A stretch of 64,000 nt of DNA from a virus. Position 1 is the stretch's first letter, and each line of letters begins with the position of its first letter. The translations under genes were made by a program, and so were the position numbers. Below the pieces are notes generated by a model that worked only from the letters and a program-made list of their open reading frames with translations, was not told the origin of the DNA and did no database searches. Of this stretch, positions 23,379 to 43,801 are shown piece by piece. Location: IMG/VR virus record IMGVR_UViG_3300034190_001539, positions 1 to 64,000 of that record; one strand, written 5' to 3'.

Positions 23379-24972
23379 TTTTACTCCAATATAAATTATC
23401 CTCTACTATTAAATAATCAACAGTACCTTTTTTTAAATGTTCAAATGGTTGATTCAAATCAAATATAATTGGTTCTCCATGACCATTAAAAGATGTATTT
23501 AAAAGAACTGGTATTTTAGATATTTTATCATATTCGTTTAAGATGCTATGAAAAAACTTATTTCTTTCTTTAAAAACTAATTGTGGTCTCAGAGTATTAT
23601 CTACTCTATGAACTACAGCAGGTATTTTATCAATCCACTCATCTTTTACTGTATAACACATTGTCATAAACTCAGCAGTCATTTTTGATTTTGTATTTTT
23701 ACAAATATCATCTATCTTTTCTCCTAAAATAATCGGAGCGAATGGCATTATTTCGTGTCTTTCTAATCTGTCATTTAAAGTTTCGTGCATTTCTTTATCT
23801 GTGGCTCTAACTAATATACTTCTAGCACCCAATGCTCTAGGCCCGTATTCCATTTTTCCCTGAAAACAACCGATGATATTTCCATCATCTAATAATTGAG
23901 CAACTTTTTTAGGATTAAATTTTTCTTTTTGAAAATCCCATTCCTTTTCTTCTTTTTTTATTTCATCCTTTGTATAATGGTTTCCTAAAAACATATTTTC
24001 AAATCTTTTATTTTTCCACTCACCCAATTCTACTGATTTCATTATAGCTGCAGCTAGCGCTAATCCAGAATCACTCATAGCTGGGTAGACATATACTTCA
24101 TCAACCCAATCTAATTCATTTATTTTTTGATTTAATTTTACATTGGCAAAAATACCACCAGCAACTGCTACCCTTTTGTATTCAGGATAAAATTTATGTA
24201 AATCTTCTAAGTATTCTAAAAAAACATCCTCTGTTAATTTTTGTACATTGAAAGCCCATTCAGCTTTTATTTCAAAATTACTATTCCAATCATCAATGCT
24301 ATCTGTAATGTTTCCCATAAGAGTTTCTAATTTTTGCCAATTACCAACAGGACCGAAGCTTAAATCATTTGTATAATGTAATGTCTGTTTTAGTTTATTA
24401 TAAATTTTTTCATTATATTTTCCGTGTCCGGCCATACCCATAAGCTTTCCCTCATCTTTAAGAGAATGCCACACCTTTCCCTCTGGCGCAAACCAAGGTG
24501 TACAACGACCAAAAAACTGACCAATAGATGCTGATTTATCTTTTAATTGTTTATGTACTAAATGTAATTTATCATCATATCCTAAATAAACTCTACCAAC
24601 AGTTTTAAAACCACTTCCGTCGTGAGTAACAACTAAAGTCTTTTCTTTAAAGCCTGAAGTATAGTAAGCACCAGCAGCATGACATAAGTGATGTGGATAT
24701 GTAACAATCTTTCTTCTAATTTCATCTGATTTGTATCTATCAAAGTCTGGCTCTGCTACCTCTGCTATACATATATAATCAGAATCCTCTGTCTTATATC
24801 CAAAATCATTTTCTATTGTATCTAGAGCAAACCAAGGATAAACTCCACTAAGAGCAAAAGATTTAATCTTACGAATTCTTTCTTCTTCTATAACTATCTT
24901 TATATCACCATCCTCTATATAAGCCACACAAGAATCATGAGCATGCCCAATCAATCCAAATATCTTACTCAT
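23359..24972 (-). CDS. O-carbamoyltransferase (CmcH/NodU/TobZ family), complete
   Basis: HDS, EEER, HHLCHA, DGSG, EGKLMGMA, GGIFANVKLN, PAMSDSG, EYGPRALGARS, PFAP, LNTSFNGHGEPI. Confidence 0.95.
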   Translation of the reverse strand: MSKIFGLIGHAHDSCVAYIEDGDIKIVIEEERIRKIKSFALSGVYPWFALDTIENDFGYKTEDSDYICIAEVAEPDFDRYKSDEIRRKIVTYPHHLCHAAGAYYTSGFKEKTLVVTHDGSGFKTVGRVYLGYDDKLHLVHKQLKDKSASIGQFFGRCTPWFAPEGKVWHSLKDEGKLMGMAGHGKYNEKIYNKLKQTLHYTNDLSFGPVGNWQKLETLMGNITDSIDDWNSNFEIKAEWAFNVQKLTEDVFLEYLEDLHKFYPEYKRVAVAGGIFANVKLNQKINELDWVDEVYVYPAMSDSGLALAAAIMKSVELGEWKNKRFENMFLGNHYTKDEIKKEEKEWDFQKEKFNPKKVAQLLDDGNIIGCFQGKMEYGPRALGARSILVRATDKEMHETLNDRLERHEIMPFAPIILGEKIDDICKNTKSKMTAEFMTMCYTVKDEWIDKIPAVVHRVDNTLRPQLVFKERNKFFHSILNEYDKISKIPVLLNTSFNGHGEPIIFDLNQPFEHLKKGTVDYLIVEDNLYWSKNEKKAD

Positions 24973-26900
24973 AAAGCGTATTCCTTATTTATATCAACTG
25001 CAGTTTTGTATATTTCCATATCATCCCTATTTAGATTTTCTATAAATCCTCTATCTATTTTTTCATATTCTTCTTTATATAAATCCCACTTTGAGTTTTG
25101 TATAGTATTTTTAAAATCAGAATCTCCTGATTCTACATCGAAATATGGGTAATTAGAATCTTTTATTTTGACACCAAACATCTTTTCAAATTTTTTCAAA
25201 CTATCATTGTAAGATTCAGTAATTCCTATGAAATCTATTTTTTCAAAGTTTCCTTCAATATATTTACCATAAATATTTTTTGAAAATTCTAATTCACAAT
25301 ATTCATATAAACTTAAATCTTCTTCTATTATTTTATTTTGTATTGGATTGTGATGTGATGGTGAGCTTTTTAAAAAATAATATTCTGATATTAATCTGTC
25401 AATTGGATTTCTAAACCAAGTAACTAATTTATGAGAAGATAAGTCTGAATACTTACCCAATCTAAAATGTCCGTGTATACATTGAAAGTGTTTAGTATCA
25501 ACTGAGGGAGTTAATTCGTATTTATTCCAAGTTGGATGATCACCATAATCTTCATATAAAAGAAAATCTTCTTTTTTCGTAAAATATTTTTCATCATACA
25601 AAACTCTATCTCTTACATTTACCTTTGCATCTCTAGCTCCAAAAATATCATATAGTACATTTCTAAACAAATTACCACCAGTTCTAGGTATATGAGATGA
25701 TATTATCCTAAGCTTTGATTCTTCTTTTTTAGTATGAATTATTTCACCATCTTTTGGCATAGTCCATAAATCTTTATATTTATAATAATCCCACAATCTA
25801 TCATCATTGAATGGATATATCTCATCATTTAAAGCCATATCAATAGTTTCTTTAGATAGCGTAGGACATCTTTCAGTTCCCAAAGGGCTCATAGTTAAAT
25901 GTGATGTATCGGGATATAACCAACCTAAATGATTTATAGTGTCATTATATCCTGTTGTAGAGTTTTCACCCGCGCCTCCATTTGGTGATTCATTAGGAAA
26001 TAATGGTTGAAAATGTTTAACTCTTTCAAAATGTTTTTCTCCACAAGGTATAACTTCCATACGATTAGTTACTGTAAGTAAAGGTAATTGAACATAATCT
26101 GGATGAAATCCAGCAAATATAGTTTGTACACTACCTGCTTCTTTTAGTCTTTGTTTTTCTGGCAGTATTCCAATTGTCTTTAAACCTAATCCCTTTGCTA
26201 TATGATATATACTACTTTGTGCGCCTATGTATATAGGAAATTCAGCAACAAAGTCAATTAATTTATTTCTAGAAACATTTAACACATGCGTATCAGCTGA
26301 TTTAACGAGATAGTCATCGGATAAACCTAATTGTACACAACGATAAGTTTTTGATAAATGTCCAACCACTTCTTCTAATAAATCATTATCTCCAAATCTA
26401 CCACCAGTTTTACTATTTAGTGTAAACAATATAGTGTTCTTTCTCTTTTTAATATTTGGTGAAGCAAATAGTTTTGGTGTATAATCCTCTGTTCTTAATC
26501 CCCAAGTATTAGTACATCTCTGAATTGTTGTTCCAAAAGTTCCCATAGAACCCCATTTGTAATCGAAATTATGAGTACCATCTACATATGGATTGTGTTG
26601 AAATACATCAATAAACCACTTTGGTATAAATACTTTACATCCCTTATAATATATTTTTAATAACTCAGGCAGTCTAGTGTATGGAATAATATCACCAAAA
26701 GAAGTACCACGATCAGATCTGTAGTCTACTGCTATTTCGGGATGTCCTATATAAAAATTATAGTCATCAGGAACATGCGGCGGAAAACCTTCAAAATCTA
26801 ATATCTCTTCTTGAAAGTTTTTAACTTTCCAAAAGTCTTTTGTCTGATTAATATAATGAAGAATATCCCCATCGGTTTGTGGCTTTTTAGCTATATTCAT
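24969..26900 (-). CDS. GT9-like glycosyltransferase fused to a sulfotransferase
   Basis: FGDI...HNPYVD and YIGAQSSIYHIAKGLG (GT-B/GT9-like); C-terminal HIPRTGG (5'-PSB), HGHF and RNPIDRLISEY (3'-PB) sulfotransferase motifs. Confidence 0.8.
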   Translation of the reverse strand: MNIAKKPQTDGDILHYINQTKDFWKVKNFQEEILDFEGFPPHVPDDYNFYIGHPEIAVDYRSDRGTSFGDIIPYTRLPELLKIYYKGCKVFIPKWFIDVFQHNPYVDGTHNFDYKWGSMGTFGTTIQRCTNTWGLRTEDYTPKLFASPNIKKRKNTILFTLNSKTGGRFGDNDLLEEVVGHLSKTYRCVQLGLSDDYLVKSADTHVLNVSRNKLIDFVAEFPIYIGAQSSIYHIAKGLGLKTIGILPEKQRLKEAGSVQTIFAGFHPDYVQLPLLTVTNRMEVIPCGEKHFERVKHFQPLFPNESPNGGAGENSTTGYNDTINHLGWLYPDTSHLTMSPLGTERCPTLSKETIDMALNDEIYPFNDDRLWDYYKYKDLWTMPKDGEIIHTKKEESKLRIISSHIPRTGGNLFRNVLYDIFGARDAKVNVRDRVLYDEKYFTKKEDFLLYEDYGDHPTWNKYELTPSVDTKHFQCIHGHFRLGKYSDLSSHKLVTWFRNPIDRLISEYYFLKSSPSHHNPIQNKIIEEDLSLYEYCELEFSKNIYGKYIEGNFEKIDFIGITESYNDSLKKFEKMFGVKIKDSNYPYFDVESGDSDFKNTIQNSKWDLYKEEYEKIDRGFIENLNRDDMEIYKTAVDINKEYAL

Positions 26901-28176
26901 TAAAAGCTCCTAATATTTCTTTTTCATTATATTTTTTTCCCATAAAAGCACTTTCCTCTCTATTAGACAAGTTGAAAATTCCTTTTTTACTATGAAAGTT
27001 AAAGTAACCATAAAAAGCACATCCTAAACTTATACCACTATCATCAGCTGCTGGAACAAAAAAGTGATTATCAAAAATATCTAAATCTATTATTTTTTGA
27101 TTTGCCACAGAATTTAAGAAACTGCCACCTGCAGCACAAAAGTTTTTGACATCTGAAATCATTGAACACTTTTTAGCTAAAAATTCAACAACTCTTTCAA
27201 ATTGATTTTGTACAAACCAAGCATGATCTGCTTTAGATTGAAAATCATTTTCATATATAGTATCACTCATATAAGATGGTATTGGTGTATTTATATACAT
27301 TTCATCTAATTCTTCTTGTTCTTCATATGGGAGGTGTTCATGAGCCCTTATCAAATATTCACCAACCTTAGGATCTTTATCAATGTATACCATTGGTTCT
27401 TTATATTTTTGTTTAACTTTATCTTCATCTCCAAAGGGAGCTAATCCCATAAGTTTTCCAGCATCATCTCCAGTCAAACCTATGTGAATACAATTGTCAT
27501 AATACCACTCCCCAAGTGATTTTCCTAATCTATATCTAGTGCTAAAACCAGAACCATCTTTGTGTTTTCCTACTGTATTAAAATATGAGTAAGCTGCTTT
27601 GTATCGAGAGTATATTCTTTTGAATACACCTTTTTTAACTTCATAAATACTAGTAGCTTCAACACACTCACCAAGTCTTGTTTTTTGAGTATGTGCTATT
27701 TTGTTTTCTACAAAATCATCTACTGTTTGTTTGTAATTCATTTCACCAGCATTGTCAGCTACTAAAATAATAGATTCATCAAAACCACTTGAGTAATGAG
27801 TTGAGTATGCGTGTGCTAAATGATGTGTACAATAATTTAATCTATCATTTGGCAAATTATATCCATTTTTTTTCAACTTCTGAACTAAAAATCCGTCTAC
27901 ACTTATTTGTTGGTCTGGTGTTAAACCAATGCCATTCCAAACAATTCTATCTAAATCCATTTTCTGTATATTAGCATAGTCTAAACAATAGTCCATAGCT
28001 TTCCAAGGAAATTCTATTAATGAATAATCCCAATTATTTTCTTCTGGCGATGGATAGCCATTGTCATTTTTAATTCTAGTAATTCTTTCTAAATTTATAG
28101 AAACGAATACCTTGCCTTCTCTCAGTAAAGTAGCGCCAGATTGATGTCCTATGTTTACACCTAAAACCCAAGTCAT
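26887..28176 (-). CDS. Carbamoyltransferase N-terminal (Kae1-like) domain only
   Basis: HHLAHA, GKLMGLAPFG, AGGSFLNSVAN and PAADDSG present; ends at the interdomain linker with no GPRALG/LNTSFN domain. Confidence 0.85.
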   Translation of the reverse strand: MTWVLGVNIGHQSGATLLREGKVFVSINLERITRIKNDNGYPSPEENNWDYSLIEFPWKAMDYCLDYANIQKMDLDRIVWNGIGLTPDQQISVDGFLVQKLKKNGYNLPNDRLNYCTHHLAHAYSTHYSSGFDESIILVADNAGEMNYKQTVDDFVENKIAHTQKTRLGECVEATSIYEVKKGVFKRIYSRYKAAYSYFNTVGKHKDGSGFSTRYRLGKSLGEWYYDNCIHIGLTGDDAGKLMGLAPFGDEDKVKQKYKEPMVYIDKDPKVGEYLIRAHEHLPYEEQEELDEMYINTPIPSYMSDTIYENDFQSKADHAWFVQNQFERVVEFLAKKCSMISDVKNFCAAGGSFLNSVANQKIIDLDIFDNHFFVPAADDSGISLGCAFYGYFNFHSKKGIFNLSNREESAFMGKKYNEKEILGAFNEYS

Positions 28177-28179
28177 TTA

Positions 28180-31100
28180 TTAGTCTCTGATTGGTGTTAT
28201 TAAATAATTTTCTACAACTAAATAATCAATATCATTTTTAAGAAAACATCTTATAGCATCAGCAGGTGTCTCTACTATAGGTTCACCAGCCTCATTAAAA
28301 GATGTATTCAATATTACTGGAATGCCTGATAGCTTTCCGAACTCTTTTATAACATCATAATATCTTTGATTGGTTTCTCTTCTTACAGTTTGTAATCTAG
28401 CAGTTCCATCTACGTGTGTTATGGATGGCAACTTTTTTTTAAACTCCTCTTTTACTTGAGCTATTAACAACATATATGGGCTTTCTGTAGTATGTGTAAA
28501 GTATTTATCAGCATCTTCTACAGTACAAGCAGGAGCAAATGGTCTATACCACTCTCTATGTTTTACCCTATTGTTAATTATATCTTGCATATCGGGATGT
28601 GTTGGATCTCCTAATATACTACGATGTCCTAATGCTCTTGGCCCCATTTCACTTCCACCTTGAAAGAAACCAACAACTTTTCCTTCGTGTACAAATGAGG
28701 CAATTTTTTTAGCTAAAGCATCCTCATCCTCAATTTTTTCGTAAGTTATTTTATCAACATTATTTATATCACTCATTATTTCCTCCTCAGAGTAATCTTT
28801 ACCCATAAAGACAGTCTCTTCTTTATTACTTAAATTTACCTTACCTTTGTCAGGATGAAAATTGTAATATCCATAAAAAGCAGTTCCAATTGATATACCA
28901 CCATCGTCTGCTGCTGGTACATAAAAATGGTCATCAAATAAATCTAAATCGACTATTTTTTGATTAGCAATTGAATTAAGGAAGCAACCACCAGCGCCTG
29001 TCAAGTATTTAACATCGGAATTCATTGAAGCCTTTTTAGCTAAAAATAATATTAAATCTTCAAATTTATTTTGAATCATCCAAGCCCAATCAGCTTTTGA
29101 TTGAAAATCTTCTGATGCTATATTAGAACTAAAATATTCTGGTCTTGGAGAATCTATATACATAAGAGTTTCTGCAGTTTGTTCTTCTCTCGGAACTGCG
29201 TGATGTACTCTTATAAAATAATCTCCTGATTTTGGGTCTGGGTCTATATAAACCATTTTCTCATTAAATCTTTTGTTAGCTACCTCAGGCCTACCATATG
29301 AAGCTAAACCCATAAGTTTTCCAGCATCATATAGTCCATCCATACCTATGTAGTTACAACCTAAAGCATAAAGTTCTCCAACTGACTGTCCTAATGTCGG
29401 CCATAATTCACCAGCTTCTGGAAAAGGTTTATAAGCTCCGTATATTTTAGTGAATACACCCTTTTTAATTTCATAGATACTACTGGCCTCTACACATTTC
29501 TCTATCGGATATTTTTTCATATGTGCTATTTTGTTGGTGGTGAACTTATCAATCACATCTCTGAAATTGGTTTCTCCGCCAGCATCTACTACAATCGAAA
29601 CAGACTCTTCAAACCCACTCGAATAGTGTGCTGAATAAGCATGAGCTAAATGATGAGTACAATAGTTTAATCTATCTTCAGTAAAATGCCAACCATTGTC
29701 TTTTAGTCTATTAGCCCAAAGTCCATTTGGATCAATTGCTAAGTCAGGAGGTAAACCTATACCATTCCAAACAATTCTTTCCAAATCTTTTTTAGTTATT
29801 CCAGCATAATCTAAACAATATTCCATAGCTTTCCAAGGAAAATCATCATTAGCCTCATCGTGCTTTATTCTAGAAATTCTTTCTGAATTTATTGAGACAA
29901 ATACTTTTCCATTTTTTACTAGTGTAGCGCCAGAGTCGTGTCCAATATTTACCCCCATAACCCATCTATCTTCACCAACTTTAATAGGTTCTATGTTATT
30001 TTTGTTTTTATTAAAAACAATAGTTCCATCATATGAATCACTGCTACCTTTTTTATATTTAGGTACAAAACCACATTTTGTTAATTTTTTTAATAAAGGC
30101 TGTAATCTATCAGTATTATGATGAAACTCTAATAAGATTTGATTTACATTATTTTTTAAATAATCTTCGCTAGCATTTAAGAAGATTTCATATTCGGCAC
30201 CCTCTACATCACATTTAATAAGATCTATATAATCTATTTTGTTCTGTTTGATAAAATCATCAAAAGACAAACATTCAACATTAGCAGTTGTTATATCTCT
30301 TTCAAATGTATATGGATTGTTATAATTAACAGGATTAACCCATTTTTCTATTTCAGGCCAATCGTTGATATAAAAAGAACCATTTGATGTAGAATGTTGT
30401 GGGTATTTTAACCATCTATTTTCAGTAATTTCTCCTAATGCACTATTGGAAATAATTACATTATCTGATTCTTTAAATGTTTTGTTAAGTCCACTCCACA
30501 AATCCGGATTTGGTTCTAGTGAATAACAAACTTTAACATTTTGTTTTGAAACCCATCTTGTGAAAACTCCTATATGTGATCCTATATCCATCACCACAGA
30601 ATCTTCGTTAAGATTGAATAAACCTTTATACTCATCTGCATAAAATATTTCTTTATGGTTTGCCCAATTTACATCAAATTCATTAGTTATATATTTAAAT
30701 TCATCTTTATTTTTAACAGAGTTGTCATTTAATTTTATGCTAAATGTTTTAATTTTAATTTTTTCTTTTGTGTAAACTACGACATCTACTTTATCTAAAT
30801 AATAATTTTCCCAAGGAGTAACATAATTAAATGGAAGCCAATAAGATGTATTCTCATCAAAAGCTATTTTTGAAGTGTATAAGGTTAAATCAGAATATGG
30901 GTCTACTACTCTGACAATAAATTCCGATTTCCTATCATTATAAAACCAAAGTTTACCTACTTCTGTTGCATCTACTGTTAGATTTGTAACATTTTTTATC
31001 TTATTACCTAATTTTATTTTTTTATTTAACATAACTTTTATTCCCTCAATCACCATTTCAGGTGTTATTTTTTTAGTACACTCAAATTCTCTATCTGTTC

Positions 31101-32175
31101 CTTTTTGTTTTGGACAAAAATTCCAATCGCCTGGAGAAAAACCATCTGTATGCCAACAACCTGTACAAACATTGTCATCATTTTCTAAGTTGATGTGTTT
31201 GGTTTTATCAGCAAAATTATACCAAGAATAATTATGTCCGTGAATTAAAACCACTGGAATATCTACAGCCCAAGCCAACCAACTTAATCCAGAACTTACA
31301 CCTATAAATAGTTCAGCATACTTTAAATCACCAATTCTATCTTCAATTGGTAAATCACCTGATTTATCAATAATACCAGTCGGATTTATATTGCCCATAT
31401 AACCGCTATCTTCTCTAGATAAATATACAACTTTATACCCAATCTTCAAAAAATAATCAACTACTTTTTGCCAACCACCATCATTATTCCAATATTTAAG
31501 TTGTGCGCTAGCGTGGGGTCCTATACAAATGTACTTACCCTCAATTTTATTTTTAGGTTCAAATTTTTCTAAATTAAGCTTTGGTTTAATTTCTTTAGTT
31601 GGCAATCCTAATATATCCGAAGCTGCTTGTTGCATAGAAATATTAGATAAGTCTACTTTATTATAAGAATCATTAAATTCATAAAATGGTTCTGTATTTT
31701 TATAACCAAAAACACCAACCTCATATGTAGCATAAAAAGATTTTGTTGGCCATTCTGATCCTTCTTTCCAAAAAGTAAAATCGTAAGTTTCTTTAAATAT
31801 TTCTGGAAAAATTGTTCCACAGAATATTTTACAATTATGTTTTTTTCTAAACTCTTCTACATAAGAAATCCAGGCAAAGTTGTCGCCTAACATATTTGAA
31901 GATATTCTTACAAAAACTTCTTTGTCTTTTAAATCTAATTGATGTTCATAGATTAGTTTACCATCTTCATATATTACTATCTTCCAATCAGTATACCATT
32001 TTCTAGAATACATAGCTGAAACACCAATTGATACTGTAGCATCGTATACTAATGTATCAGCATCCCAAAACTCTATGGTATATTCGGAATTATTTTTACG
32101 CTTTGAATTGATTATTACAAATGGACCTGAATCGAAGTTGAATTCTATTTTCAAATCTCTTATAGTCTTTATCAA
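28180..32175 (-). CDS. Fusion of Aah/TibC-like protein O-heptosyltransferase, FkbM-type methyltransferase and complete carbamoyltransferase
   Basis: SNMLGDNFAW, ASAQLKYWNN, FIGVSSGLSWLAWA and 4-Cys finger CTGCW...CP...EC; DIGSHIG and IDLIKCDVEGAE; HHLAHA...GPRALGHRS...HREWYRPFAP...LNTSFN. Start is uncertain (see findings). Confidence 0.88.
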   Translation of the reverse strand: MIKTIRDLKIEFNFDSGPFVIINSKRKNNSEYTIEFWDADTLVYDATVSIGVSAMYSRKWYTDWKIVIYEDGKLIYEHQLDLKDKEVFVRISSNMLGDNFAWISYVEEFRKKHNCKIFCGTIFPEIFKETYDFTFWKEGSEWPTKSFYATYEVGVFGYKNTEPFYEFNDSYNKVDLSNISMQQAASDILGLPTKEIKPKLNLEKFEPKNKIEGKYICIGPHASAQLKYWNNDGGWQKVVDYFLKIGYKVVYLSREDSGYMGNINPTGIIDKSGDLPIEDRIGDLKYAELFIGVSSGLSWLAWAVDIPVVLIHGHNYSWYNFADKTKHINLENDDNVCTGCWHTDGFSPGDWNFCPKQKGTDREFECTKKITPEMVIEGIKVMLNKKIKLGNKIKNVTNLTVDATEVGKLWFYNDRKSEFIVRVVDPYSDLTLYTSKIAFDENTSYWLPFNYVTPWENYYLDKVDVVVYTKEKIKIKTFSIKLNDNSVKNKDEFKYITNEFDVNWANHKEIFYADEYKGLFNLNEDSVVMDIGSHIGVFTRWVSKQNVKVCYSLEPNPDLWSGLNKTFKESDNVIISNSALGEITENRWLKYPQHSTSNGSFYINDWPEIEKWVNPVNYNNPYTFERDITTANVECLSFDDFIKQNKIDYIDLIKCDVEGAEYEIFLNASEDYLKNNVNQILLEFHHNTDRLQPLLKKLTKCGFVPKYKKGSSDSYDGTIVFNKNKNNIEPIKVGEDRWVMGVNIGHDSGATLVKNGKVFVSINSERISRIKHDEANDDFPWKAMEYCLDYAGITKKDLERIVWNGIGLPPDLAIDPNGLWANRLKDNGWHFTEDRLNYCTHHLAHAYSAHYSSGFEESVSIVVDAGGETNFRDVIDKFTTNKIAHMKKYPIEKCVEASSIYEIKKGVFTKIYGAYKPFPEAGELWPTLGQSVGELYALGCNYIGMDGLYDAGKLMGLASYGRPEVANKRFNEKMVYIDPDPKSGDYFIRVHHAVPREEQTAETLMYIDSPRPEYFSSNIASEDFQSKADWAWMIQNKFEDLILFLAKKASMNSDVKYLTGAGGCFLNSIANQKIVDLDLFDDHFYVPAADDGGISIGTAFYGYYNFHPDKGKVNLSNKEETVFMGKDYSEEEIMSDINNVDKITYEKIEDEDALAKKIASFVHEGKVVGFFQGGSEMGPRALGHRSILGDPTHPDMQDIINNRVKHREWYRPFAPACTVEDADKYFTHTTESPYMLLIAQVKEEFKKKLPSITHVDGTARLQTVRRETNQRYYDVIKEFGKLSGIPVILNTSFNEAGEPIVETPADAIRCFLKNDIDYLVVENYLITPIRD

Positions 32176-32504: not shown

Positions 32505-33278
32505 TTATCCTGTTATGTAAATACCTAAGAAAAGAGTACCCATATTTGATCCGTAACCATAGCCTGTAAAATCAATAGTATTAGAAGAAAATGTAATTTC
32601 AGGAAACCTTAGATAAACATCTTTGCTAGCACCAGCACCACTTGATTCATAATAAATAGTATCACCATTTACACCTGTTCCACTTGACGGAGGTGTACCA
32701 TTACGGTGATTCCATCTTCCTGCCGTAGTCGCAGTAGCTATATCAATAAATGTAGCGCTGTGATCGTATGCTGTATTAGTGGTTAGGGATGTTGTTTGAA
32801 TACCAGTGAATCCTGCTGTAGCGAATGATGACCATCTTTCGGTGGAGTTATAATTTATTCTTCTCACCTGAGCATCAGATCTAAAAGAAGTTCCTGACTC
32901 AAATCTAAAGAAAATGTGACCTGTATTGCCGATGATTGATGCTCCTGCATAAGCTGCTGCTGATAAATCTATACCGGAAACAGTTACTAAACCAGTACCT
33001 TGATCTCCTGAAAACATTTGAGTAGAGCTACTATTACCATAAGAGCCTACCGCTACCTTATCATGATCGTAGGCATAAAATTCGGACATCGCGTGTGGAG
33101 TAAGACCATCAGGTCTATCATCGGAAGCATTAGCAGTATTTATAGTACCTTCTATACCACGAGAACAATCTTCTAATGATATTGGATTACCATCAAAAAT
33201 AGCTGTTGAATAATCATTGGTTCTTATTTCTTGATGTATACCTTTTAATGATATTGCACCACTACTTGGAACTGCCAT
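32505..33278 (-). CDS. Putative fibre-tip adhesin / receptor-binding protein
   Basis: [11 protein letters not shown]...MSEFYAY N-terminal module typical of genes that follow S74-ended fibres; TAATG-coupled to the fibre gene. Confidence 0.6.
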   Translation of the reverse strand: MAVPSSGAISLKGIHQEIRTNDYSTAIFDGNPISLEDCSRGIEGTINTANASDDRPDGLTPHAMSEFYAYDHDKVAVGSYGNSSSTQMFSGDQGTGLVTVSGIDLSAAAYAGASIIGNTGHIFFRFESGTSFRSDAQVRRINYNSTERWSSFATAGFTGIQTTSLTTNTAYDHSATFIDIATATTAGRWNHRNGTPPSSGTGVNGDTIYYESSGAGASKDVYLRFPEITFSSNTIDFTGYGYGSNMGTLFLGIYITG

Positions 33279-36200
33279 TATTTCAACGCCTCTAGTTCTC
33301 GTCTAAGTTCATCGATTTGTTTTTGTTGGTCCTTTATAGACTCTATTAGTAATGGAACTATCTTTTCGTATTTTACTGTCAAGTAATCTTCACCAGATTT
33401 TGAATTACCATCTTTATCTAAATCAAAAGGAGCAATATGAACAACTTCTGGTAATACTTTTTGTACAGATTGTGCACTAACACCTATTTGAATATCATCA
33501 TGTTCAAATCCAAAACTTTTTGCTAAATCATTGTTTTTGTAAGTAAATACTTCTATATCCTTAATTTTATTTATTGGATTATCTATACCAATTTTAATTC
33601 TATCTTTTAGTCTAGTATCTGAATAGTAAGCAGTTACATCACCAGTGACTGTAAAGTTGGTTGTAGTTACATCAATTCTAGCGGTAGAATCTCCATCATA
33701 AATTGCAATTCGTTGAGTAGAATTTCCACCACCATTTAAGAAAAGAGTACCTCCATTTTTAGCACTTACAAATGTGTGACCATCTGTCGTATCATAAAGC
33801 ATCAGATAATCAGTAGTATTATGGTCATCTGTAGTGAATGCTAAATATCTAGCAGTGCTAGCTGCCCAAGGTTTCATTTGAAAATGATGAGTTGCTACTG
33901 TAGCGGCTGAAAAGTCTCCTGTTATATCTAAAGGACCAGTAAGAATGAAATCAGTACCATCCCATACTAAAGAAGCATCAAAACTCGCAACCGCTGCCCC
34001 AGTTCCAAATACAAGCTTTGTATTATCATAAAATTTAAGGTGGTCTTGTGATTCATCCCAAATCATTTTTCTAGCTGAGGTAGCACCAAAGAATGTTACA
34101 TCTATTCCAGTATCATCTACACCAAATTCAACTGGAGCACCTGAAAATCTAGATTGATCTTCGGCAAAATGAACCCTTTCACCAATAGCTTTAATTGTAA
34201 CATTATTGATTGCATCTGAGTCTTGGGTGTCACCTATTGTCATTGTTTGACCATTGACATGTATTCCACCATTTTGAGCATTATGGCCAGATGATGCTAT
34301 CTTTAGTTCTGCATTAGTTGCACTTACTGACAAAATAGTACCATCAAAAGTCATATTAGCTTCAGCATTTATTGTAGATGAATCTACAGATGTTATTACT
34401 CTGTTATTAGTCTGATTGGTATACGAAGTTATTCCAGCATTACCACCAGTTCCACCAGTAGCACCTTGAGCGCCTTGCGCTCCAGTTCCGCCTGTTCCAC
34501 CAGTAGCACCTGTACCACCTGTTCCACCAGTGCCTGTTCCACCAGTTCCACCAGTAGCTCCAGTTTGACCTGTACCACCAGTTCCGCCTGTTCCACCAGT
34601 AGCACCTGTACCACCAGTTCCGCCTGTGCCAGTTCCACCAGTTCCACCAGTTCCACCTGTTCCGCCTGTAGCGCCAGTTTGACCAGTTCCTCCTGTTCCG
34701 CCTGTTTCTCCAGTACCACCAGTACCACCAGTTCCAGTTCCGCCAGTACCACCTGTGTGACCTGTACCACCAGTAGCACCAGTTGCTCCAGTAGCGCCTG
34801 TTTGTCCAGTTCCTCCAGTTCCACCAGTTCCAGTTCCACCTGTTCCGCCAGTAATGCCTTGCGCTCCAATTCCACCTGTTCCGCCTGTAATGCCTTGCGC
34901 TCCAATTCCACCAGTTCCTCCAGTTTGACCTGTACCACCAGTAGCACCAGTTGCTCCAGTAGCGCCTGTTTGTCCAGTTCCTCCTGTACCACCAGTTCCA
35001 GTTCCACCAGTTCCGCCAGTACCACCAGTACCACCAGTATGTCCAGTAGCACCTGTAGCGCCTGTTTGTCCAGTTCCGCCAGTTCCGCCAGTACCAGTAC
35101 CACCAGTACCACCAGTTCCGCCTGTTCCACCTGTTCCACCAGTAGCACCTACACCACCAGTACCACCTGTTTGACCTGTTCCACCAGTACCACCAGTGCC
35201 TGTTCCACCAGTTCCGCCAGTGTGACCTGTTCCCCCAGTTCCACCAGTATTACCTTGTCCACCAGTTCCGCCTGTTTGTCCAGTTCCACCTGTTCCACCA
35301 GTACCTGTTCCGCCTGTTCCACCAGTTTGACCAGTTCCGCCTGTTCCACCAGTTCCACCAGTCGCTGTACTAGCTGCTCCAGTTCCACCAGTTCCACCAG
35401 TTCCACCAGTAGCACCTGTTTGTCCAGTTCCTCCAGTTCCGCCAGTTCCGCCTGTTTGTCCAGTTCCGCCAGTTCCACCAGTTGCTCCTTGCGCTCCAAT
35501 TCCACCAGTTCCGCCTGTACCAGTTCCACCAGTTCCACCAGTAGCACCTGTTTGTCCAGTTCCTCCAGTTCCTCCAGTTCCGCCAGTTGCTCCTTGCGCT
35601 CCAGTTCCGCCTGTTCCTCCAGTACCTGTTCCACCAGTTCCACCAGTTGCTCCAGTTTGACCTGTACCGCCAGTTCCACCTGTCTGTCCAGTTCCACCTG
35701 TTCCACCAGTTTGACCTGTTCCACCAGTTCCGCCTGTTGCTGTACTAGCTGCTCCAGTTCCGCCAGTACCACCAGTACCAGTTCCGCCTGTTCCACCAGT
35801 TCCTCCAGTAGCGCCAGTTTGACCTGTTCCGCCTGTTCCACCAGTTGCTCCTTGCGCTCCAATTCCACCAGTTCCACCTGTGCCAGTTCCACCAGTTCCA
35901 CCAGTAGCACCTGTCTGTCCAGTACCACCTGTTCCGCCAGTTCCACCAGTAGCACCTTGCGCTCCAGTTCCGCCAGTTCCGCCAGTGCCAGTTCCACCAG
36001 TTCCACCAGTTCCACCAGTAGCACCTGTTTGTCCAGTTCCTCCAGTTCCGCCAGTTGCTCCTTGCGCCCCAATTCCACCAGTTCCTCCAGTACCTGTTCC
36101 GCCAGTACCACCTGTGTGACCTGTACCACCAGTTCCACCAGTAGCTCCTACTCCACCAGTTCCACCTGTTGCACCTACTCCACCAGTACCACCAGTACCT

Positions 36201-39200
36201 GTACCACCAGTTCCACCAGTTGCTCCAGTAGCACCTGTTTGTCCAGTTCCACCAGTTCCACCAGTAGCGCCTTGCGTTCCAATTCCACCAGTTCCTCCAG
36301 TGCCTGTTCCGCCAGTACCACCAGTTGCTCCAGTAGCACCTGTTTGTCCAGTTCCACCAGTTCCTCCAGTAGCGCCTTGCGTTCCAATTCCACCTGTTCC
36401 ACCAGTACCAGTTCCACCAGTACCACCTGTGTGACCAGTTCCACCAGTTCCGCCTGTAGCACCTACTCCGCCAGTTCCGCCTGTAGCACCTACACCACCA
36501 GTTCCACCAGTACCAGTTCCGCCAGTTCCACCAGTAGCACCAGTTGCTCCAGTAGCGCCTGTTTGTCCAGTCCCACCAGTTCCGCCAGTTTGACCTGTAC
36601 CACCAGTTCCGCCTGTGCCAGTTCCACCAGTTCCGCCTGTAGCACCTGTTTGTCCAGTTCCACCAGTACCACCAGTTGCTGTACTAGCTGCTCCAGTTCC
36701 GCCAGTTCCACCAGTTCCAGTTCCGCCAGTTCCACCTGTGTGACCAGTTCCGCCAGTTCCGCCTGTAGCTCCTATACCACCAGTACCACCTGTTGCGCCT
36801 ACACCACCAGTTCCGCCTGTAGCACCTACACCGCCAGTTCCACCAGTAGCACCTGTTTGTCCAGTTCCGCCTGTTCCACCAGTAGCACCTGTTTGTCCAG
36901 TTCCACCAGTACCACCAGTTCCTACTGTATAATCTACTCCATCTATTTGTAACAATCCAAACGAACCAGTTGAGGTTGATGAACCACTTATTGCATGTTG
37001 TCCACCAGTATAAACTATTCCATCACCCGTACCATTGTTTGTAATTGTTATTGCACCATTATTACCATCTTGCCTTAGATGTATTAATTCATTGTCCATT
37101 GAAGCATTTTCAGCAATAACACTAACAAGTGGATTTGCGGTAGCTGCCGCATTTGAGTATATCTCTAATGCTTTATCACCCGAATTAGTCGTATCTATGT
37201 AAACAGCTGGTGTGTCATAATCATCATGGTCAATGTGTATTGCTGTTTTATTATCTGAATATATTGATAGTGCAGCAGTATTTTCAATGTTTGATGAGTG
37301 TCCACCAAAAATTGACATTTTTTGAAATACTTCAAGTTTGTCCTCTACACGAGCTTTACTTGATTCTAACCTACCAAACGAACCAGTTGATGTTACTGAG
37401 CCACTTATGTTTCCAAGAGGCAACTCCAAATTACCTTCTTTAGTTAGTATAAAAGTATCTTGCATACCACCATCATTTTGTGATATAACAAACGATACAC
37501 TTGTTTCATCAAATCTTACTTTATTTTCACCACCTAATTTTAATTGACCAGTGTTTACAACCTCAGTTGTCATCTGAGAGTTGTCTACTTTAAATTTATC
37601 GTTTCCACCATTTCTATAAACTAATTGGTCATTATCATAAACTAATGAACCATTAGCATCAAAAACATAACTAAAAGATGTACCCTCTGTCCTTCCAAAC
37701 GAACCAGTTGATTCAAATGAACCACTTAAAAAAGTTCCATCAATAGTAAAGTTAGATTCAGCAGTTCCTGAACCATCACCATCTGCAGTTAATATTCTGT
37801 TCTCTCCATCATTGGCGATTGCCATAAATCCACCAGTTCCGCCTGTTTGACCTGTGCCACCAGTTCCACCAGTAGCACCTGTTTGTCCAGTTCCGCCTGT
37901 TCCACCAGTAGCACCTATACCACCAGTTCCACCAGTTCCAGTTCCACCAGTTCCGCCAGTAGCACCAGTTGCTCCAGTCTGTCCAGTTCCTCCAGTTCCT
38001 CCAGTTTGACCTGTACCACCAGTTCCACCAGTTTCGCCTGTTCCTCCTGTACCACCAGTCGCTGTACTAGCTGCTCCAGTTCCACCTGTACCACCAGTAC
38101 CAGTTCCACCAGTACCACCTGTGTGACCAGTTCCACCAGTTCCGCCTGTTTGTCCAGTTCCTCCTGTTCCGCCAGTTTGACCTGTACCACCAGTTCCACC
38201 AGTGCCTGTTCCACCAGTACCACCAGTTGCTCCAGTAGCACCAGTTGCTCCAGTTTGTCCAGTTCCTCCTGTTCCGCCAGTTTGACCTGTACCACCAGTT
38301 CCACCAGTGCCTGTTCCACCAGTTCCACCAGTTCCGCCTGTAGCGCCTGTTTGTCCAGTTCCACCTGTTCCGCCTGTAGCGCCTTGCGCTCCAATTCCAC
38401 CAGTTCCTCCAGTACCTGTTCCACCAGTTCCACCAGTCGCTCCAGTTGCTCCAGTTTCACCTGTTTGACCAGTTCCGCCTGTTCCGCCTGTAACACCTAC
38501 TCCACCAGTACCACCAGTACCAGTTCCGCCAGTTCCACCAGTAGCGCCAGTCTGACCTGTACCACCAGTTCCGCCAGTTTGACCAGTTCCGCCTGTTCCA
38601 CCTGTTTCGCCTGTACCACCAGTTCCGCCTGTTGCTGTACTAGCTGCTCCAGTTCCACCTGTTCCACCAGTACCTGTTCCACCAGTACCACCAGTAGCAC
38701 CTGTTGCTCCAGTCTGTCCAGTTCCACCAGTTCCGCCTGTAGCGCCTTGCGCTCCAATTCCTCCAGTACCACCAGTTCCAGTTCCACCTGTTCCGCCTGT
38801 TTGACCAGTACCACCTGTTCCACCAGTAGCACCTATACCACCAGTTCCTCCTGTAGCACCTACTCCACCAGTACCGCCAGTTCCAGTTCCACCTGTTCCG
38901 CCAGTTTGACCTGTTCCACCAGTACCGCCAGTACCTGTTCCACCAGTTCCGCCTGTGCCTCCTGTTGCACCTGTTTCTCCAGTTCCTCCAGTACCCCCAG
39001 TAGCGGTAGACGCAGCGCCAGTTCCGCCTGTTCCACCAGTTCCAGTTCCTCCTGTTCCGCCTGTTTCTCCAGTTCCACCAGTTCCGCCTGTTTGTCCAGT
39101 TCCGCCAGTTCCCCCTGTAACACCTACTCCACCAGTACCACCAGTGCCTGTTCCACCAGTTCCACCAGTTCCGCCTGTTGCTCCAGTAGCACCTGTTTGT

Positions 39201-41392
39201 CCAGTTCCTCCTGTTCCACCAGTTTGTCCAGTTCCTCCTGTACCACCAGTTCCAGTTCCACCAGTTCCGCCAGTAGCACCAGTTGCTCCAGTTTGTCCAG
39301 TTCCGCCAGTTCCGCCTGTCTCTCCATTACCGCCAGTACCACCAGTTCCAGTACCACCAGTTCCACCAGTTTGACCTGTTCCGCCAGTACCACCAGTTCC
39401 CTGACCACCAGTTCCGCCTGTTCCACCTGTATCTCCTACACCACCAGTACCACCAGTTCCAGTACCACCAGTTCCACCAGTTGCTCCAGTTGCTCCAGTT
39501 TGACCTGTTCCACCAGTACCACCAGTTGCTGTGCTAGCTGCTCCAGTACCACCAGTTCCACCAGTGCCAGTTCCACCAGTTCCGCCAGTACCACCAGTTG
39601 TTCCATCACCGCCAGTTCCTCCTGTAGAACCTACACCACCAGTTCCGCCAGTAACTCCTATACCACCAGTTCCGCCAGTACCTGTTCCGCCTGTTCCGCC
39701 AGTAGCACCAGTAGCTCCTGTTTGACCAGTTCCACCAGTTCCACCAGTTTCACCTGTTCCGCCTGTTCCGCCTGTTACTCCATCTCCACCTGTTCCACCA
39801 GTAACACCTATACCACCAGTTCCACCTGTGCCAGTTCCACCAGTTCCGCCTGTTTGACCAGTTCCACCTGTTCCTCCAGTTCCTTGTCCACCAGTTCCAC
39901 CAGTTGCTCCAGTTTGTCCAGTTCCGCCAGTTCCACCAGTACCTGTACCACCAGTTCCACCTGTTGCACCTGCTCCACCAGTACCACCAGTTCCAGTTCC
40001 GCCAGTTCCGCCTGTCTGCCCAGTTCCGCCTGTTCCACCAGTTTGACCTGTACCACCAGTTCCGCCTGTTTCGCCTGTTCCACCAGTTCCACCTGTGCCA
40101 GTTCCACCAGTTCCGCCTGTTTGACCAGTTCCACCTGTTCCACCAGTAACACCTATACCACCAGTACCACCAGTTCCTTGACCACCAGTACCACCTGTGT
40201 GACCTGTTCCACCAGTTCCTCCAGTTCCAGTTCCGCCAGTTCCTCCAGTTTCGCCTGTAGCACCTGTTTGTCCAGTTGCTCCAGTAGCACCTGTTTGTCC
40301 AGTTCCACCAGTTCCGCCTGTTTGACCTGTGCCACCAGTACCGCCAGTTCCTTGTCCACCAGTTCCACCAGTTCCACCTGTAACACCTACACCACCAGTT
40401 CCACCTGTGCCAGTTCCGCCAGTTCCACCAGTAGCACCTACACCACCAGTTCCGCCTGTCTGCCCAGTACCACCAGTTCCGCCTGTTTCACCTGTTCCAC
40501 CAGTACCACCAGTTCCAGTTCCACCTGTTCCACCAGTTGCTCCAGTTGCTCCAGTTTGACCTGTACCGCCAGTTCCACCTGTCTGTCCAGTTCCACCAGT
40601 TCCGCCTGTAGCACCTACACCACCAGTTCCGCCAGTTCCAGTTCCGCCAGTTCCACCAGTAGCACCAGTTGCTCCAGTAGCGCCTGTTTGTCCAGTTCCA
40701 CCTGTTCCGCCTGTCTGTCCAGTTCCACCTGTACCACCAGTACCAGTTCCACCAGTACCACCTGTTCCGCCTGTTGCTCCAGTAGCACCTGTTTGCCCAG
40801 TTCCACCAGTTCCGCCTGTCTGTCCAGTTCCACCAGTACCACCAGTACCAGTTCCGCCTGTTCCACCTGTTCCACCAGTAGCACCTACACCACCTGTTCC
40901 GCCAGTTTCACCTGTTCCACCAGTACCACCAGTACCAGTTCCACCAGTTCCACCAGTTGCTCCAGTAGCACCTGTTTGTCCAGTTCCGCCTGTTCCACCA
41001 GTAGCACCTATACCACCAGTTCCACCAGTTCCAGTTCCACCAGTTCCACCTGTTCCGCCTGTTGCTCCATCACCACCAGTTCCGCCAGTAGCACCTTCAC
41101 CACCAGTTCCACCAGTAGCACCAGTAGCGCCAGTAGCGCCAGTAGCACCAGTTGCTCCAGTAGCTCCAGTTTGACCAGTTCCACCAGTTCCACCAGTTCC
41201 TACTGTATAATCTTCACCATTTATTTGTAAAACACCAAATGAACCAGTTGATATTGCTGAACCACTAATATTACCAGCTACTGATATATAACCAAAAGAA
41301 CCCGATGTTTCGGATGAACCACTAATATTACCTTTCTTAACGATAATATCGTGATTAAATACATTTTTACCTATGTATTTGGGATTAGACAT
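33278..41392 (-). CDS. Giant Gly-X-Thr repeat fibre with C-terminal peptidase S74 intramolecular chaperone
   Basis: 2704 aa with two GXT blocks; C-terminal YYSDTRLKD...[15 protein letters not shown]...[19 protein letters not shown]. Confidence 0.9.
34440..36920 (-). repeat. Gly-X-Thr repeat block 2 (about 825 codons)
   Basis: Degenerate 9-bp units (ccaccagtt / ccgcctgtt on the + strand); far more GC-rich than the flanks. Confidence 0.95.
37830..41200 (-). repeat. Gly-X-Thr repeat block 1 (about 1,120 codons)
   Basis: Same degenerate 9-bp units as block 2. Confidence 0.95.
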
Positions 41393-42259: not shown

Positions 42260-43801
42260 CTACGAATTAAATTTTCCTTGCGCTATTATTTCATCATCAT
42301 CTTCTAAATCATAACCTATACTGGTTGTATTAACTATTAGGTGAAATGTAGAGCCTGCTTGTTGTATCGTAAGAGCATCATGTTCCATATACTGACCATT
42401 TATAAAAAATACAAAGTCTTGTTCATTAGTGGCAGTAAGTCCAGTTGGAGCAGAAGCTGTTACAGCAGTAAAACTAGCAGTTGATGGTGCTGAAATAGAG
42501 TTAGCTTTTTTAACAAATTGTTTTCTCAAATAAGAGTTAGTATCACCTGTGGTTACTCCATCCACCGATAGAGATCCAGAAATATTTACACTACCTGTAA
42601 ATTGGTGCGTATCGTCTATTGTGTCACCAAATATAGTAGAACCACTTGATTGCATAACAGACATAGAAACAATGGATGATGATACTATATAATTTTCTGC
42701 AAAAATATCACCTTTAACAACCCAATCAGTATTTACTTCAGCTTTACCATCATCTCTTTGTTTTATTTCAAATGATGTTGCTCCAATATGAATTGCATTT
42801 GAAGCACTAACATTATTAAACTGAACTGTGCTTGTAGTTCCTACTTCTTGCCCAATAGAAAAGGTAAATTCTTTTTCCTGTGTTCCATCAAATTTTCCCT
42901 CACCGCCTATGCTGACTCCAGTTCCAGCTATTACCTGAAATGATTTATCCAAAGTACCACCAGCAGCACCTTGTTGTACGGATATTTTTACATCTTTAGT
43001 CTTACTGTCTCCAACTAAGTTGGTTAGATTTACACTTACATCATCTCCTATTAAAATTCTTTTTGGTGTTAGTGTTTTTTGAGTTGTAAGAACTCTATTA
43101 AATTCTTCAGGTATTAAATAACCATTTAAAGTAACTGAAAAGTTTGTTCTAATCAGTCTTTCAGAATTTACAGAAACTTCACTAGCATCTGTATAATTAT
43201 CTATTGTTGTTCTGAATTTAAATTTTCCATCTTCTCCCCAATAAGAACCCTCACTCCAAATAATCTTTTCTACAATCTTATTCATTTGTTCTGTGTAGGT
43301 TGTCCATATAACAAAATCATAAGTCACACTAACATAATCAGGCACACCTACTGTGTATAATTCATTAACTTTATTTAAACCTTGTTGTACGGAAAATTTA
43401 TCATAACGATTTTTTTCAGAATATTTTCTTTGGAATGTATAAAATAGTTTAGGGTCTTTAGGATCTAATTTATCAACAGACATATTAGTATCTTTTTCAA
43501 TAGATGTTCTTTTAAAAGCAATTAATGGTATTATTAATTGTTTTTTATTATCTACTAAATAACCATTTTTTTGTACCATAGCCCATCTTTCAGGATTAGA
43601 ATACATAAGAGGAACTTTAATAGATTCTCCATTTTCCTCAACCATTGGTTGGATTGTATTATTAAAGTAAAACATAATAGCTGCATCAATATCCATCAAC
43701 CCAACTGATATTTGTTTTACTGTATCGTCATCTCTCGACCTTAATCTACCACGATTTAATTTTTTCCTAGCAGAGCGAGGTATTGGTTTTTCACGAGCCA
43801 T
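42260..43801 (-). CDS. Tail completion/terminator protein (gp15-like) with C-terminal fibre-like extension
   Basis: IKVPLMYSNPERW, PLIAFKR, VPDYVSVTY, QMNKIVE; C-terminal SGSTIFGDTIDDTHQFTGS module. Confidence 0.65.
   Translation of the reverse strand: MAREKPIPRSARKKLNRGRLRSRDDDTVKQISVGLMDIDAAIMFYFNNTIQPMVEENGESIKVPLMYSNPERWAMVQKNGYLVDNKKQLIIPLIAFKRTSIEKDTNMSVDKLDPKDPKLFYTFQRKYSEKNRYDKFSVQQGLNKVNELYTVGVPDYVSVTYDFVIWTTYTEQMNKIVEKIIWSEGSYWGEDGKFKFRTTIDNYTDASEVSVNSERLIRTNFSVTLNGYLIPEEFNRVLTTQKTLTPKRILIGDDVSVNLTNLVGDSKTKDVKISVQQGAAGGTLDKSFQVIAGTGVSIGGEGKFDGTQEKEFTFSIGQEVGTTSTVQFNNVSASNAIHIGATSFEIKQRDDGKAEVNTDWVVKGDIFAENYIVSSSIVSMSVMQSSGSTIFGDTIDDTHQFTGSVNISGSLSVDGVTTGDTNSYLRKQFVKKANSISAPSTASFTAVTASAPTGLTATNEQDFVFFINGQYMEHDALTIQQAGSTFHLIVNTTSIGYDLEDDDEIIAQGKFNS

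Follow-up and report, generated by a model that had tools for sequence, protein, structure and literature searches.

A giant proline-free Gly-X-Thr repeat fibre of a marine T4-like phage and its possible collagen-type shaft

The window analysed here is a stretch of 64,000 nucleotides (nt) of viral DNA, positions 1 to 64,000 of the IMG/VR virus record IMGVR_UViG_3300034190_001539, and our subject is one gene in it, P0001, which encodes a very long fibre protein dominated by glycine and threonine. The complete record has 101 kb and is about 55% complete. The order of genes is gp15-like gene, two small open reading frames (ORFs), fibre gene, a gene of 257 codons, a block of about 12 kb of sugar enzymes, sheath, tube and baseplate hub, with the fibre gene lying within the late structural block between the gp15-like and sheath genes (Table 1). 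All other large genes of the window are on the same strand as the fibre gene. Flavobacterium phage immuto and Microcystis phage Mel-JY01 have capsid proteins with about 50% identity to the one encoded here, which together with the gene block points to a divergent myovirus of the T4 superfamily. We also considered a plus-strand reading of the repeats and rejected it, because the plus-strand ORFs have no homology whereas the minus frame joins homologous end domains. The ORFs in question are shadow frames of the Gly and Thr codons, are located at 34466-36952 (828 residues) and 37847-41230 (1,127 residues), and could be mis-annotated by a gene caller. We regard the fibre gene as almost certainly real.

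Table 1 Features of the fibre gene and its surroundings. Positions are those of the window; lengths are in residues.
Feature	Position	Strand	Length	Details
Whole fibre gene, P0001	33278-41392	minus	2,704	single ORF
N-terminal anchor and pre-repeat cap	41201..41392	minus		residues 1-64; cap SGS..STGSFG.LQI.G.DYTV
Repeat domain R1	37829..41200	minus	1,124	residues 65-1188; Gly-X-Thr triplets with GT breaks
Non-repeat linker	36923..37828	minus	302	residues 1189-1490; second pre-repeat cap at its end
Repeat domain R2	34442..36922	minus	827	residues 1491-2317; most regular 35-residue super-period
Distal non-repeat domain	33623..34441	minus		residues 2318-2590; post-repeat motif at its start
Peptidase_S74 chaperone domain	33281..33622	minus		residues 2591-2704; Ser2591 and Lys2596 in SDTRLK
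257-residue partner gene	32505..33278	minus	257	overlaps the fibre stop codon
P0123	41394-41717	minus	107	first 111 positions of PHROG 1276; ends four bases before the fibre start codon
P0277	41719-41965	minus	81	fibre-type N-terminus MAL..SK.L.P.LTGSFTISGS; two STGSFG motifs; C-terminal ...HATAMAIVFGG
gp15-like gene	42260-43801
gp23-type capsid gene	45567-47189			head-tail adaptor gene also present
Fusion enzyme	28180..32175	minus	1,331	TibC-type protein heptosyltransferase, FkbM methyltransferase and NodU/CmcH-type carbamoyltransferase (Pfam, PHROGs)
Rest of glycan-tailoring cassette	20940..28176	minus
Tail sheath gene	17974-20478			tube and baseplate hub genes also present

The fibre protein has two repeat domains, R1 and R2, with a linker between them and two non-repeat domains at the distal end. 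Together the repeats amount to 1,951 residues, in agreement with the approximately 1,950 of the initial annotation, which had been made from the letters alone; the span 34440-41200 that it gave to the repeat contains R1 and R2 and, in addition, the linker, which is not repetitive. The cap motif that precedes R1 is found again ahead of R2, and the post-repeat motif NR[IV]ITS..AE.N.TFDG is common to R1, R2 and the fibres of three related contigs (L001, L172 and L137). The N-terminus is the same in the fibres of L155, L137, L138 and L007, and in contig G002 it stands on a separate protein of 435 residues. The fibre family is modular, in that the N-terminal anchor, the caps, the post-repeat motif and an interspersed domain of about 125 residues are combined with different tips. 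Both the interspersed domain and the post-repeat motif occur in fibres of the GGT type as well as of the GXY type.

At the C-terminus, PF13884 (Peptidase_S74) matches residues 2591-2652 with 32.7 bits against a cut-off of 22 (E 9e-8), and the matches of the domain in the PDB are 7dc3 (the ICA domain of MYRF) and 6f45 (the end of the long tail fibre protein gp37 of phage S16). The residues S, D, R, L and K of SDTRLK (2591-2596) are invariant in an alignment of 22 homologues, and a C-terminal domain with this Ser-Lys motif is shared with the K1F/NF endosialidases, T5 pb1, S16 gp37 and MYRF ICA. We used AlphaFold2 on the C-terminal 387 residues of the fibre, and the S74 domain was the sole part modelled with confidence, with a predicted local distance difference test (pLDDT) of 85-93; confidence was low for the distal domain (residues 2318-2590) as a monomer. 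Members of the S74 family, such as the endosialidases, T5 pb1 and S16 gp37, bring three chains together in parallel and then release themselves by self-cleavage. The domain and this knowledge of the family suggest that the protein is a homotrimeric virion fibre, and we consider a parallel trimer highly probable. In the cases that have been studied the S74 domain folds shafts of triple beta-helix or beta-prism, whereas here it follows a Gly-X-Y shaft, as it does in many metagenomic proteins.

The composition of the repeats is extremely narrow. R1 and R2 contain 1052 G, 612 T, 129 A, 82 Q, 23 V, 18 I, 13 E, 8 H, 8 S, 4 D and 2 N, that is, 54% Gly and 31% Thr, and none of P, K, R, F, W, Y, C, M or L. 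The 596 triplets are mostly GGT (347), followed by GAT (96), GQT (64), GET (12), GHT (8) and GVT (7), so the early description of the repeat as proline-free and mostly GGT was correct. The X position is Gly in 390 triplets (65%) and the Y position is Thr in 540 (91%). The triplets are interrupted by 55 GT dipeptides, each of which is a one-residue deletion (G1G in collagen nomenclature). Periodic register breaks had thus been rightly noticed, but they mostly come every 11 triplets and not every few: the commonest run between breaks has 11 triplets, which gives a super-period of 35 residues, and 24 of the 47 units of the fibre protein have exactly this length. The segments between breaks are mostly of about 33 residues and span 17 to 72 within the single chain. 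As to the recurrent inserts, GAASTAT is indeed found, seven times, while GIGAQ proved to be part of the in-register triplets GGI-GAQ. Six of the seven GAASTAT inserts, each adding one residue, stand exactly two triplets after a GT, which removes one, and the original register is back after 15 residues; seven of the eight Ser of the repeats are in GAASTAT. In the 101-kb record there are 49 copies of the break motif, every one of them in the fibre gene, and none of the reversed control pattern. If extended, at 0.286 nm per residue, the two rods would be approximately 321 nm and 237 nm long. A Gly-X-Thr repeat fibre with Gly at X, Thr only, and periodic G1G breaks flanked by GG is a distinct variant.

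Repeats of this kind raise the question of assembly, and the length of the arrays, or the gene itself, might be an artefact of short-read metagenome assembly. The longest exact DNA repeat in the fibre gene is shorter than 100 nt, and the copies share only 65-76% of their sequence; the periods given by Tandem Repeats Finder, 9 and 105 nt, have matches of only 65-70%. The mixed synonymous codons of the initial annotation are borne out. Which codon is used depends on the place in the triplet: for the first Gly of GGT it is mostly GGT or GGC, for the second mostly GGA, and for Thr ACT or ACA; over 34442-41200 the coding sequence avoids runs of G and has no long exact repeats. Logan contigs of four runs, from four marine studies, cover all 30 bins and reproduce the flanks and the linker without differences, as well as stretches of 135-255 nt inside both arrays. 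In addition, relatives have complete ORFs of 2,603 residues (L155) and 2,176 residues (G002), assembled independently in other samples, and in the window one frame is open over 8.1 kb with intact homologous end domains. What speaks for an artefact is that none of the contigs of the four runs crosses an array, that many joints within the repeats have low support and short sides, coming from repeats or from relatives, and that related contigs frequently end within the fibre gene. Given the divergence of the copies and the independent ORFs, we consider such an artefact very unlikely. At least six studies have metagenome runs, of marine, seawater and sediment origin, that contain nearly identical DNA; the records of these runs give no temperature or location. 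In RNA runs only about 10% of the sequence words were found.

In order to find relatives we used a degenerate DNA pattern encoding GGTGGTGTGGTGGT. Multi-copy arrays were found in four other IMG/VR contigs (a fifth contig, L014, has a partial array with 5% Pro) and in at least 34 of the 120 metagenome loci listed; those records that are named after a habitat are all marine. The representative genomes of 185,579 prokaryote species gave only isolated single or double matches, with no GGT-rich ORF among the loci listed. The capsid, adaptor, 162-residue, gp15 and fibre genes are syntenic in all contigs that are long enough. A search of 5.8 billion proteins with the whole protein returned only ordinary collagen-like proteins and none of the GGT type. 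Since metagenome contigs do encode proteins of the GGT type, that database or its scoring misses them, and the result is no argument for rarity; low-complexity fibres may be systematically under-represented in protein databases. With tblastn against cultured phages only the S74 end was matched, the repeats being masked by the low-complexity filter. The short stretches of about 66% identity that blastn found in cultured phages were rejected as ordinary GAT or GPT collagen-like fibres. The GGT type was found in none of the cultured phages of the collection, and the open-access literature searched holds no description of natural (Gly-Gly-Thr)n fibres.

We then asked which features of the repeat are under constraint, by comparing the 24 in-phase units of 35 residues of the fibre repeat. 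Their mean nucleotide identity is 76%, with a mean proportion of synonymous differences (pS) of 0.48, a proportion of non-synonymous differences (pN) of 0.125 and a pN/pS of 0.26. The Gly of position 1 is kept in 264 of 264 cases, though four codons are used for it. The non-synonymous changes hit X and, less often, Y: X may be Gly, Ala, Gln, Glu, His, Val, Thr or Asn, and Y is Thr and now and then Val, Ile or Gln. The distances between breaks in the fibre protein are all of the form 3n+2, except in units that have a GAASTAT insert or a GGQ-GT break, and the two commonest distances in the family, 35 and 32, are of the same form, with about one third of all spacings equal to 35. Around the break the context GGTGGT-GT-GGTGG is invariant over 148 distinct contexts of the family (six residues before GT and positions +2 to +6 after it), of which our search pattern fixed only three positions. 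The X positions farther from the break vary, with Gly at 36-68%, and the sequence around each break is palindromic. Judged from the sequence, only one position of each triplet is buried whereas X and Y are exposed, and this is characteristic of assemblies of the collagen type.

The nature of that assembly is best approached through the syntenic fibre of contig L001. Its rods are ordinary proline-free collagen-like repeats (GTQ/GIQ/GLQ) of up to 97 triplets with occasional G1G breaks, and they match PF01391 with E 1.6e-42, which served as our positive control. Its linker is 96% identical to the linker of the present fibre. When L001:5675-10624 is set against 36923-37828 of the window, a nearly identical linker is seen with wholly different rods (GTQ/GIQ/GLQ versus GGT); this resemblance, on sequence grounds, indicates a recent exchange of modules within the fibre gene of these two closely related phages. 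In the relatives of the GGT type, 26 of 27 distinct canonical runs (GAQ, GPQ, GDQ) are in register with the flanking GGT by direct reading of the sequence. As the GGT/GAQ mosaic segments of these relatives have no Pfam Collagen match at E<=0.01, the in-register argument rests on this direct reading. The synteny with L001 and the in-register triplets suggest that the GGT domain stands exactly where a collagen-like rod would be expected and passes gradually into such a rod. Because of the L001 rods, the in-register GAQ/GPQ triplets and the invariant Gly of position 1, we read the repeat as a parallel three-stranded rope of the collagen type, a fold to which we attach a moderate probability. The wider reading, in which a homotrimeric virion fibre of a marine T4-like phage has this rope as its shaft, appears to us evenly poised when taken as a whole.

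The repeat is clearly not ordinary collagen, as had been claimed from the start. It is an outlier among the 120 giant collagen-like proteins of the 5.8-billion search, none of which comes near the fibre in Gly content or in number of GGT, and it has neither Pro nor Lys/Glu pairs. The imino-acid and Lys-Glu/Asp stabilisers are absent (no Pro, Lys or Arg, with 13 Glu and 4 Asp). The 596 triplets, mostly in runs of 11, agree with the usual collagen pattern of a Gly in every third position over six or more triplets; a stricter definition, under which neither X nor Y may be Gly (PMC11923368), leaves the repeat out on account of its 390 Gly at X. In an analysis of about 58,000 collagen-like domains, a Gly at X or at Y is classed as a destabilising interruption, and Lys-Glu/Asp salt bridges are found to be the general stabilising code (PMC11923368). 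The phmmer search of the PDB (E<=10) with the repeat found collagen chains first, with a heavy composition bias, and then the GGX region of spidroin and BclA; the nearest clusters of the ESM Atlas are BclA-type exosporium collagens, with a weak score.

Compared with the collagen-like phage fibres that match PF01391 with or without S74, namely CRP-6 gp60 of a Roseobacter phage (GAT/GQK), PSSM2_028 of the Prochlorococcus phage P-SSM2, EPcl of an E. coli O157 prophage and L001, the present fibre likewise repeats Gly every three residues, with Thr frequent at Y and with G1G breaks now and then; it is encoded within the structural block, its rods are placed between the same cap motifs and interspersed domains, and it ends in an S74 chaperone. 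It is unlike them in having Gly at 65% of the X positions, no Pro, Lys or Arg, periodic breaks in an invariant GG-rich context, and no PF01391 match. The exosporium protein BclA of Bacillus, a (Gly-Pro-Thr)n protein, and the Thr-galactosylated cuticle collagen of Riftia share with it the Gly-X-Thr pattern with Thr at Y, and the sugars on their Thr are thought to replace hydroxyproline as stabiliser (PMC11923368). They differ in having Pro at X where the fibre has Gly and in being short (tens of triplets) and unbroken, and their enzymes are rhamnosyl or galactosyl systems, whereas the putative glycosylation here would be due to a cassette of the TibC heptosyltransferase type.

Since there are no Pro, no charge pairs, and Gly at X, a helix would need another stabiliser, and a candidate is encoded two genes downstream of the fibre gene. 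In the fusion enzyme found there, residues 1-500 match only TibC in the PDB (4rap/4rb4, E 1e-51), and the four Cys of the iron finger, the catalytic Asp and the sugar-binding residues are aligned to TibC (CxxC..CP..FEC, GD, KYWNN, R, SW(L)AW), with the residue roles taken from PMC4358343. The further members of the cassette are a carbamoyltransferase N domain (429 residues), a sulfotransferase (643), a carbamoyltransferase (537) and a GT2 plus DUF5672 protein (812). In G002 the fibre, the partner gene and the cassette are in the same order, with a fusion enzyme that is 83% identical, and in a second lineage (L240, L241 and L244) TibC homologues stand beside collagen-like S74 fibres. A phage-encoded enzyme of the TibC type has not been reported in the open-access literature searched. 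TibC-family enzymes glycosylate proteins, which makes a glycosylation system for the virion plausible. Glycosylation of Thr is a known stabiliser of Pro-poor triple helices (PMC11923368), and it is plausible that sugar on the Thr of the Y position would supply what the helix lacks. The idea that the arrayed Thr could be glycan acceptors thus gains from the cassette; it is weakened by the Ser preference of the characterised enzymes, and that the repeat is glycosylated seems to us a real possibility that stays somewhat short of an even chance.

A number of points weigh against the rope and its sugar coat. There is no match to PF01391 for the whole protein, nor for two repeat segments at E<=10, although the composition filter of HMMER may contribute to this result. 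By published rules, a repeat with Gly at 65% of X and no Pro, Lys or Arg would form a very unstable triple helix, and (Gly-Pro-Thr)10 forms only a random coil when its Thr carry no galactose (PMC11923368). The characterised TibC-type enzymes modify Ser, not Thr (PMC4358343), and the 1,951 repeat residues include only eight Ser. The linkage of enzyme and fibre rests on two related contigs and one other lineage, and in marine myophages the fibre islands often contain glycosyltransferases, enzymes that are usually read as modifiers of host lipopolysaccharide or surface (PMC7029224). The lack of a contig spanning either array leaves the exact number of units without independent confirmation. Finally, the AlphaFold2 monomer of a 245-residue segment of the repeat, run as a single sequence, has a pLDDT of 32 and no structure, a result that is uninformative on oligomers.

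Several of these points would equally suit a mostly unfolded, flexible (GGT)n tether, perhaps mucin-like if glycosylated, which would hold the distal domain far off. The composition resembles engineered flexible linkers of Gly-Gly-Thr/Ser, the AlphaFold2 confidence is low, and all known helix stabilisers encoded in the sequence are absent (PMC11923368). A tether of this kind does not account for the pattern of conservation, with Gly at every position 1 of the 24 units, Thr at about 91% of Y, and X free, at half saturation of the synonymous sites. Nor does it explain why the breaks respect the phase of the triplets and stand in an invariant context, or why each domain lies between cap motifs, as is the case in folded collagen-like fibres. 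Had only the composition been constrained, the register, the breaks and the phase would not have been preserved, which makes a disordered linker unlikely, and we give the tether a rather low probability.

Another alternative is packing of the polyglycine II (PGII) type instead of a supercoiled collagen helix, either as a straight, untwisted parallel bundle of three or more strands or as a fold-back antiparallel bundle with turns at GT. The initial annotation had pointed to PGII bundles, likening the repeat to springtail antifreeze proteins and to gp38 of phage S16. There is indeed a Gly-rich three-residue period, as in snow-flea antifreeze protein and S16 gp38, with no need for Pro and with probable polyproline-II strands bonded through the backbone, and S16 gp37, the carrier of gp38, has the same kind of C-terminal chaperone (the 6f45 match). 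Two of three positions are Gly in 65% of the triplets, and always beside the breaks, which a collagen helix would not need; the palindromic surroundings of the breaks would suit a hairpin; and the sequence matches in the PDB include the GGX region of spidroin, for which 3-1 helices are assumed. Published rules take Gly at X as disrupting the canonical helix (PMC11923368), and cryo-electron microscopy has found collagen triple helices that are untwisted at discontinuities (PMC11463431).

The details of the repeat are more difficult to reconcile with a fold-back bundle. The bundles of springtail antifreeze proteins and S16 gp38 are small and globular, and their antiparallel strands are short, matched in length and joined by turns; to our knowledge strands of about 33 residues are far longer than those of any solved PGII bundle. 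Here the domains have 1,124 and 827 residues, the segments vary from 17 to 72 residues in one protein, only about a third of the spacings in the family are 35, so that neighbouring strands of a folded-back chain would be mismatched, and a turn motif is lacking, with T-G-T as the only candidate. X tolerates Gln, Glu, His and Val and must therefore be exposed, and canonical collagen triplets carry on in register. No PGII bundle protein, antifreeze protein or gp38 is among the PDB phmmer matches at E<=10, and the AlphaFold monomer proposed as a check gave no fold-back bundle, which is weak evidence. The ends of the chain would keep it in a parallel trimer, and homology, synteny and the S74 domain place the repeats where the sister fibres have their collagen-like rods. 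The likeness to springtail antifreeze proteins and gp38 consequently finds no support here. Fold-back bundles are unlikely. None of these findings speaks against the parallel, untwisted packing, which the untwisted helices seen by cryo-electron microscopy make more conceivable, and for PGII packing in general we see a low probability. It had also been suggested that the arrayed Thr form a face that orders ice or water, with an antifreeze or ice-binding function. This has only the analogy with Thr-rich and Gly-rich antifreeze proteins in its favour; we are dealing with a virion fibre that has a chaperone domain and the architecture of a receptor fibre, the PDB search gave no similarity to any solved antifreeze protein, the metagenome records, being silent on temperature and location, do not bear on a link to ice, and we find the suggestion hardly credible.

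Returning to the collagen-type rope, we propose the following mechanism. The S74 domain would join three parallel chains and then cut itself off at Ser2591, and the two Gly-X-Thr domains, bracketed by caps, would zip into a three-stranded rope of polyproline-II strands with the Gly of position 1 toward the axis and Thr outward, about 320 and 240 nm long when extended. The GT deletions, mostly 35 residues (about 10 nm) apart, would act as nodes where the register slips. In a staggered homotrimer, a deletion in every chain would permute which chain provides the axial Gly, and the GGT pairs that flank each break would ensure that only Gly is at the axis through the transition, so as to give regularly spaced flexible joints. 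The likeliest stabiliser would be dense O-glycosylation by the adjacent TibC-type heptosyltransferase and its tailoring cassette. The fibre may then serve as a long protease-proof tether that widens the reach of the phage for its hosts; having no Lys, Arg or aromatic residues, the shaft is without trypsin or chymotrypsin sites. Such a tether would carry the distal binding domain (residues 2318-2590), perhaps with the co-translated 257-residue partner, and would provide a larger encounter radius in dilute seawater.

The partner gene also follows directly after the fibre in G002 (34% identity), and its family is found beside S74 collagen-like fibres in L240, L241 and L244. Further members of the family were seen at L237:14831-15880 and at L241:2157-3107 and 11163-12533. 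They begin with M-A/P-V/L-P-S-(S)-G-x-I-S-L ... MSEF(Y/W)xY and come right after collagen-like fibres that end in S74, in two lineages. A paralogue in L241/L244 of about 316 residues has 34-37% Gly with poly-Gly blocks. The layout of fibre and partner recalls the S16 pair of gp37, with its chaperone end, and gp38, a Gly-rich adhesin. On the other side of the fibre gene, beyond P0123, the small protein P0277 may, from its sequence motifs, be a small fibre or adaptor; its counterpart in G002 has 300 residues and is in the same place.

There is, at a low level of probability, a further possibility, that the fibre has an undescribed architecture: a parallel three-stranded rope of half a micrometre, PGII-like and un- or weakly supercoiled, held by backbone bonds and by a coat of modified heptose on Thr, with the GG-flanked skips as swivel joints. 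If this were true, it would be a fourth route to a collagen-type helix besides hydroxyproline, salt bridges and Pro-rich sequences, and the first phage fibre whose fold depends on protein glycosylation encoded by the phage. In collagen research the stability of the helix is attributed to imino acids, hydroxyproline, Lys-Glu/Asp salt bridges or glycosylated Thr, and Gly at X or Y is regarded as a defect. In this fibre selection has maintained 596 triplets, of which two thirds have Gly at X, with neither Pro nor charge pairs; the register is strictly preserved as well, and so is the sequence context of the 55 periodic deletions of one residue. Should the domain prove helical, it would offer a minimal system, provided by nature, in which to study what a triple helix requires, how G1G breaks are accommodated and whether glycosylation can by itself fold such a chain. 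Since the repeats have neither Lys nor Arg, they escape standard proteomics based on trypsin. The rods would be several times longer than the long tail fibres of T4-type phages, and the finding adds a widespread marine family of fibres of more than 2,000 residues that would extend the reach of the virion several-fold.

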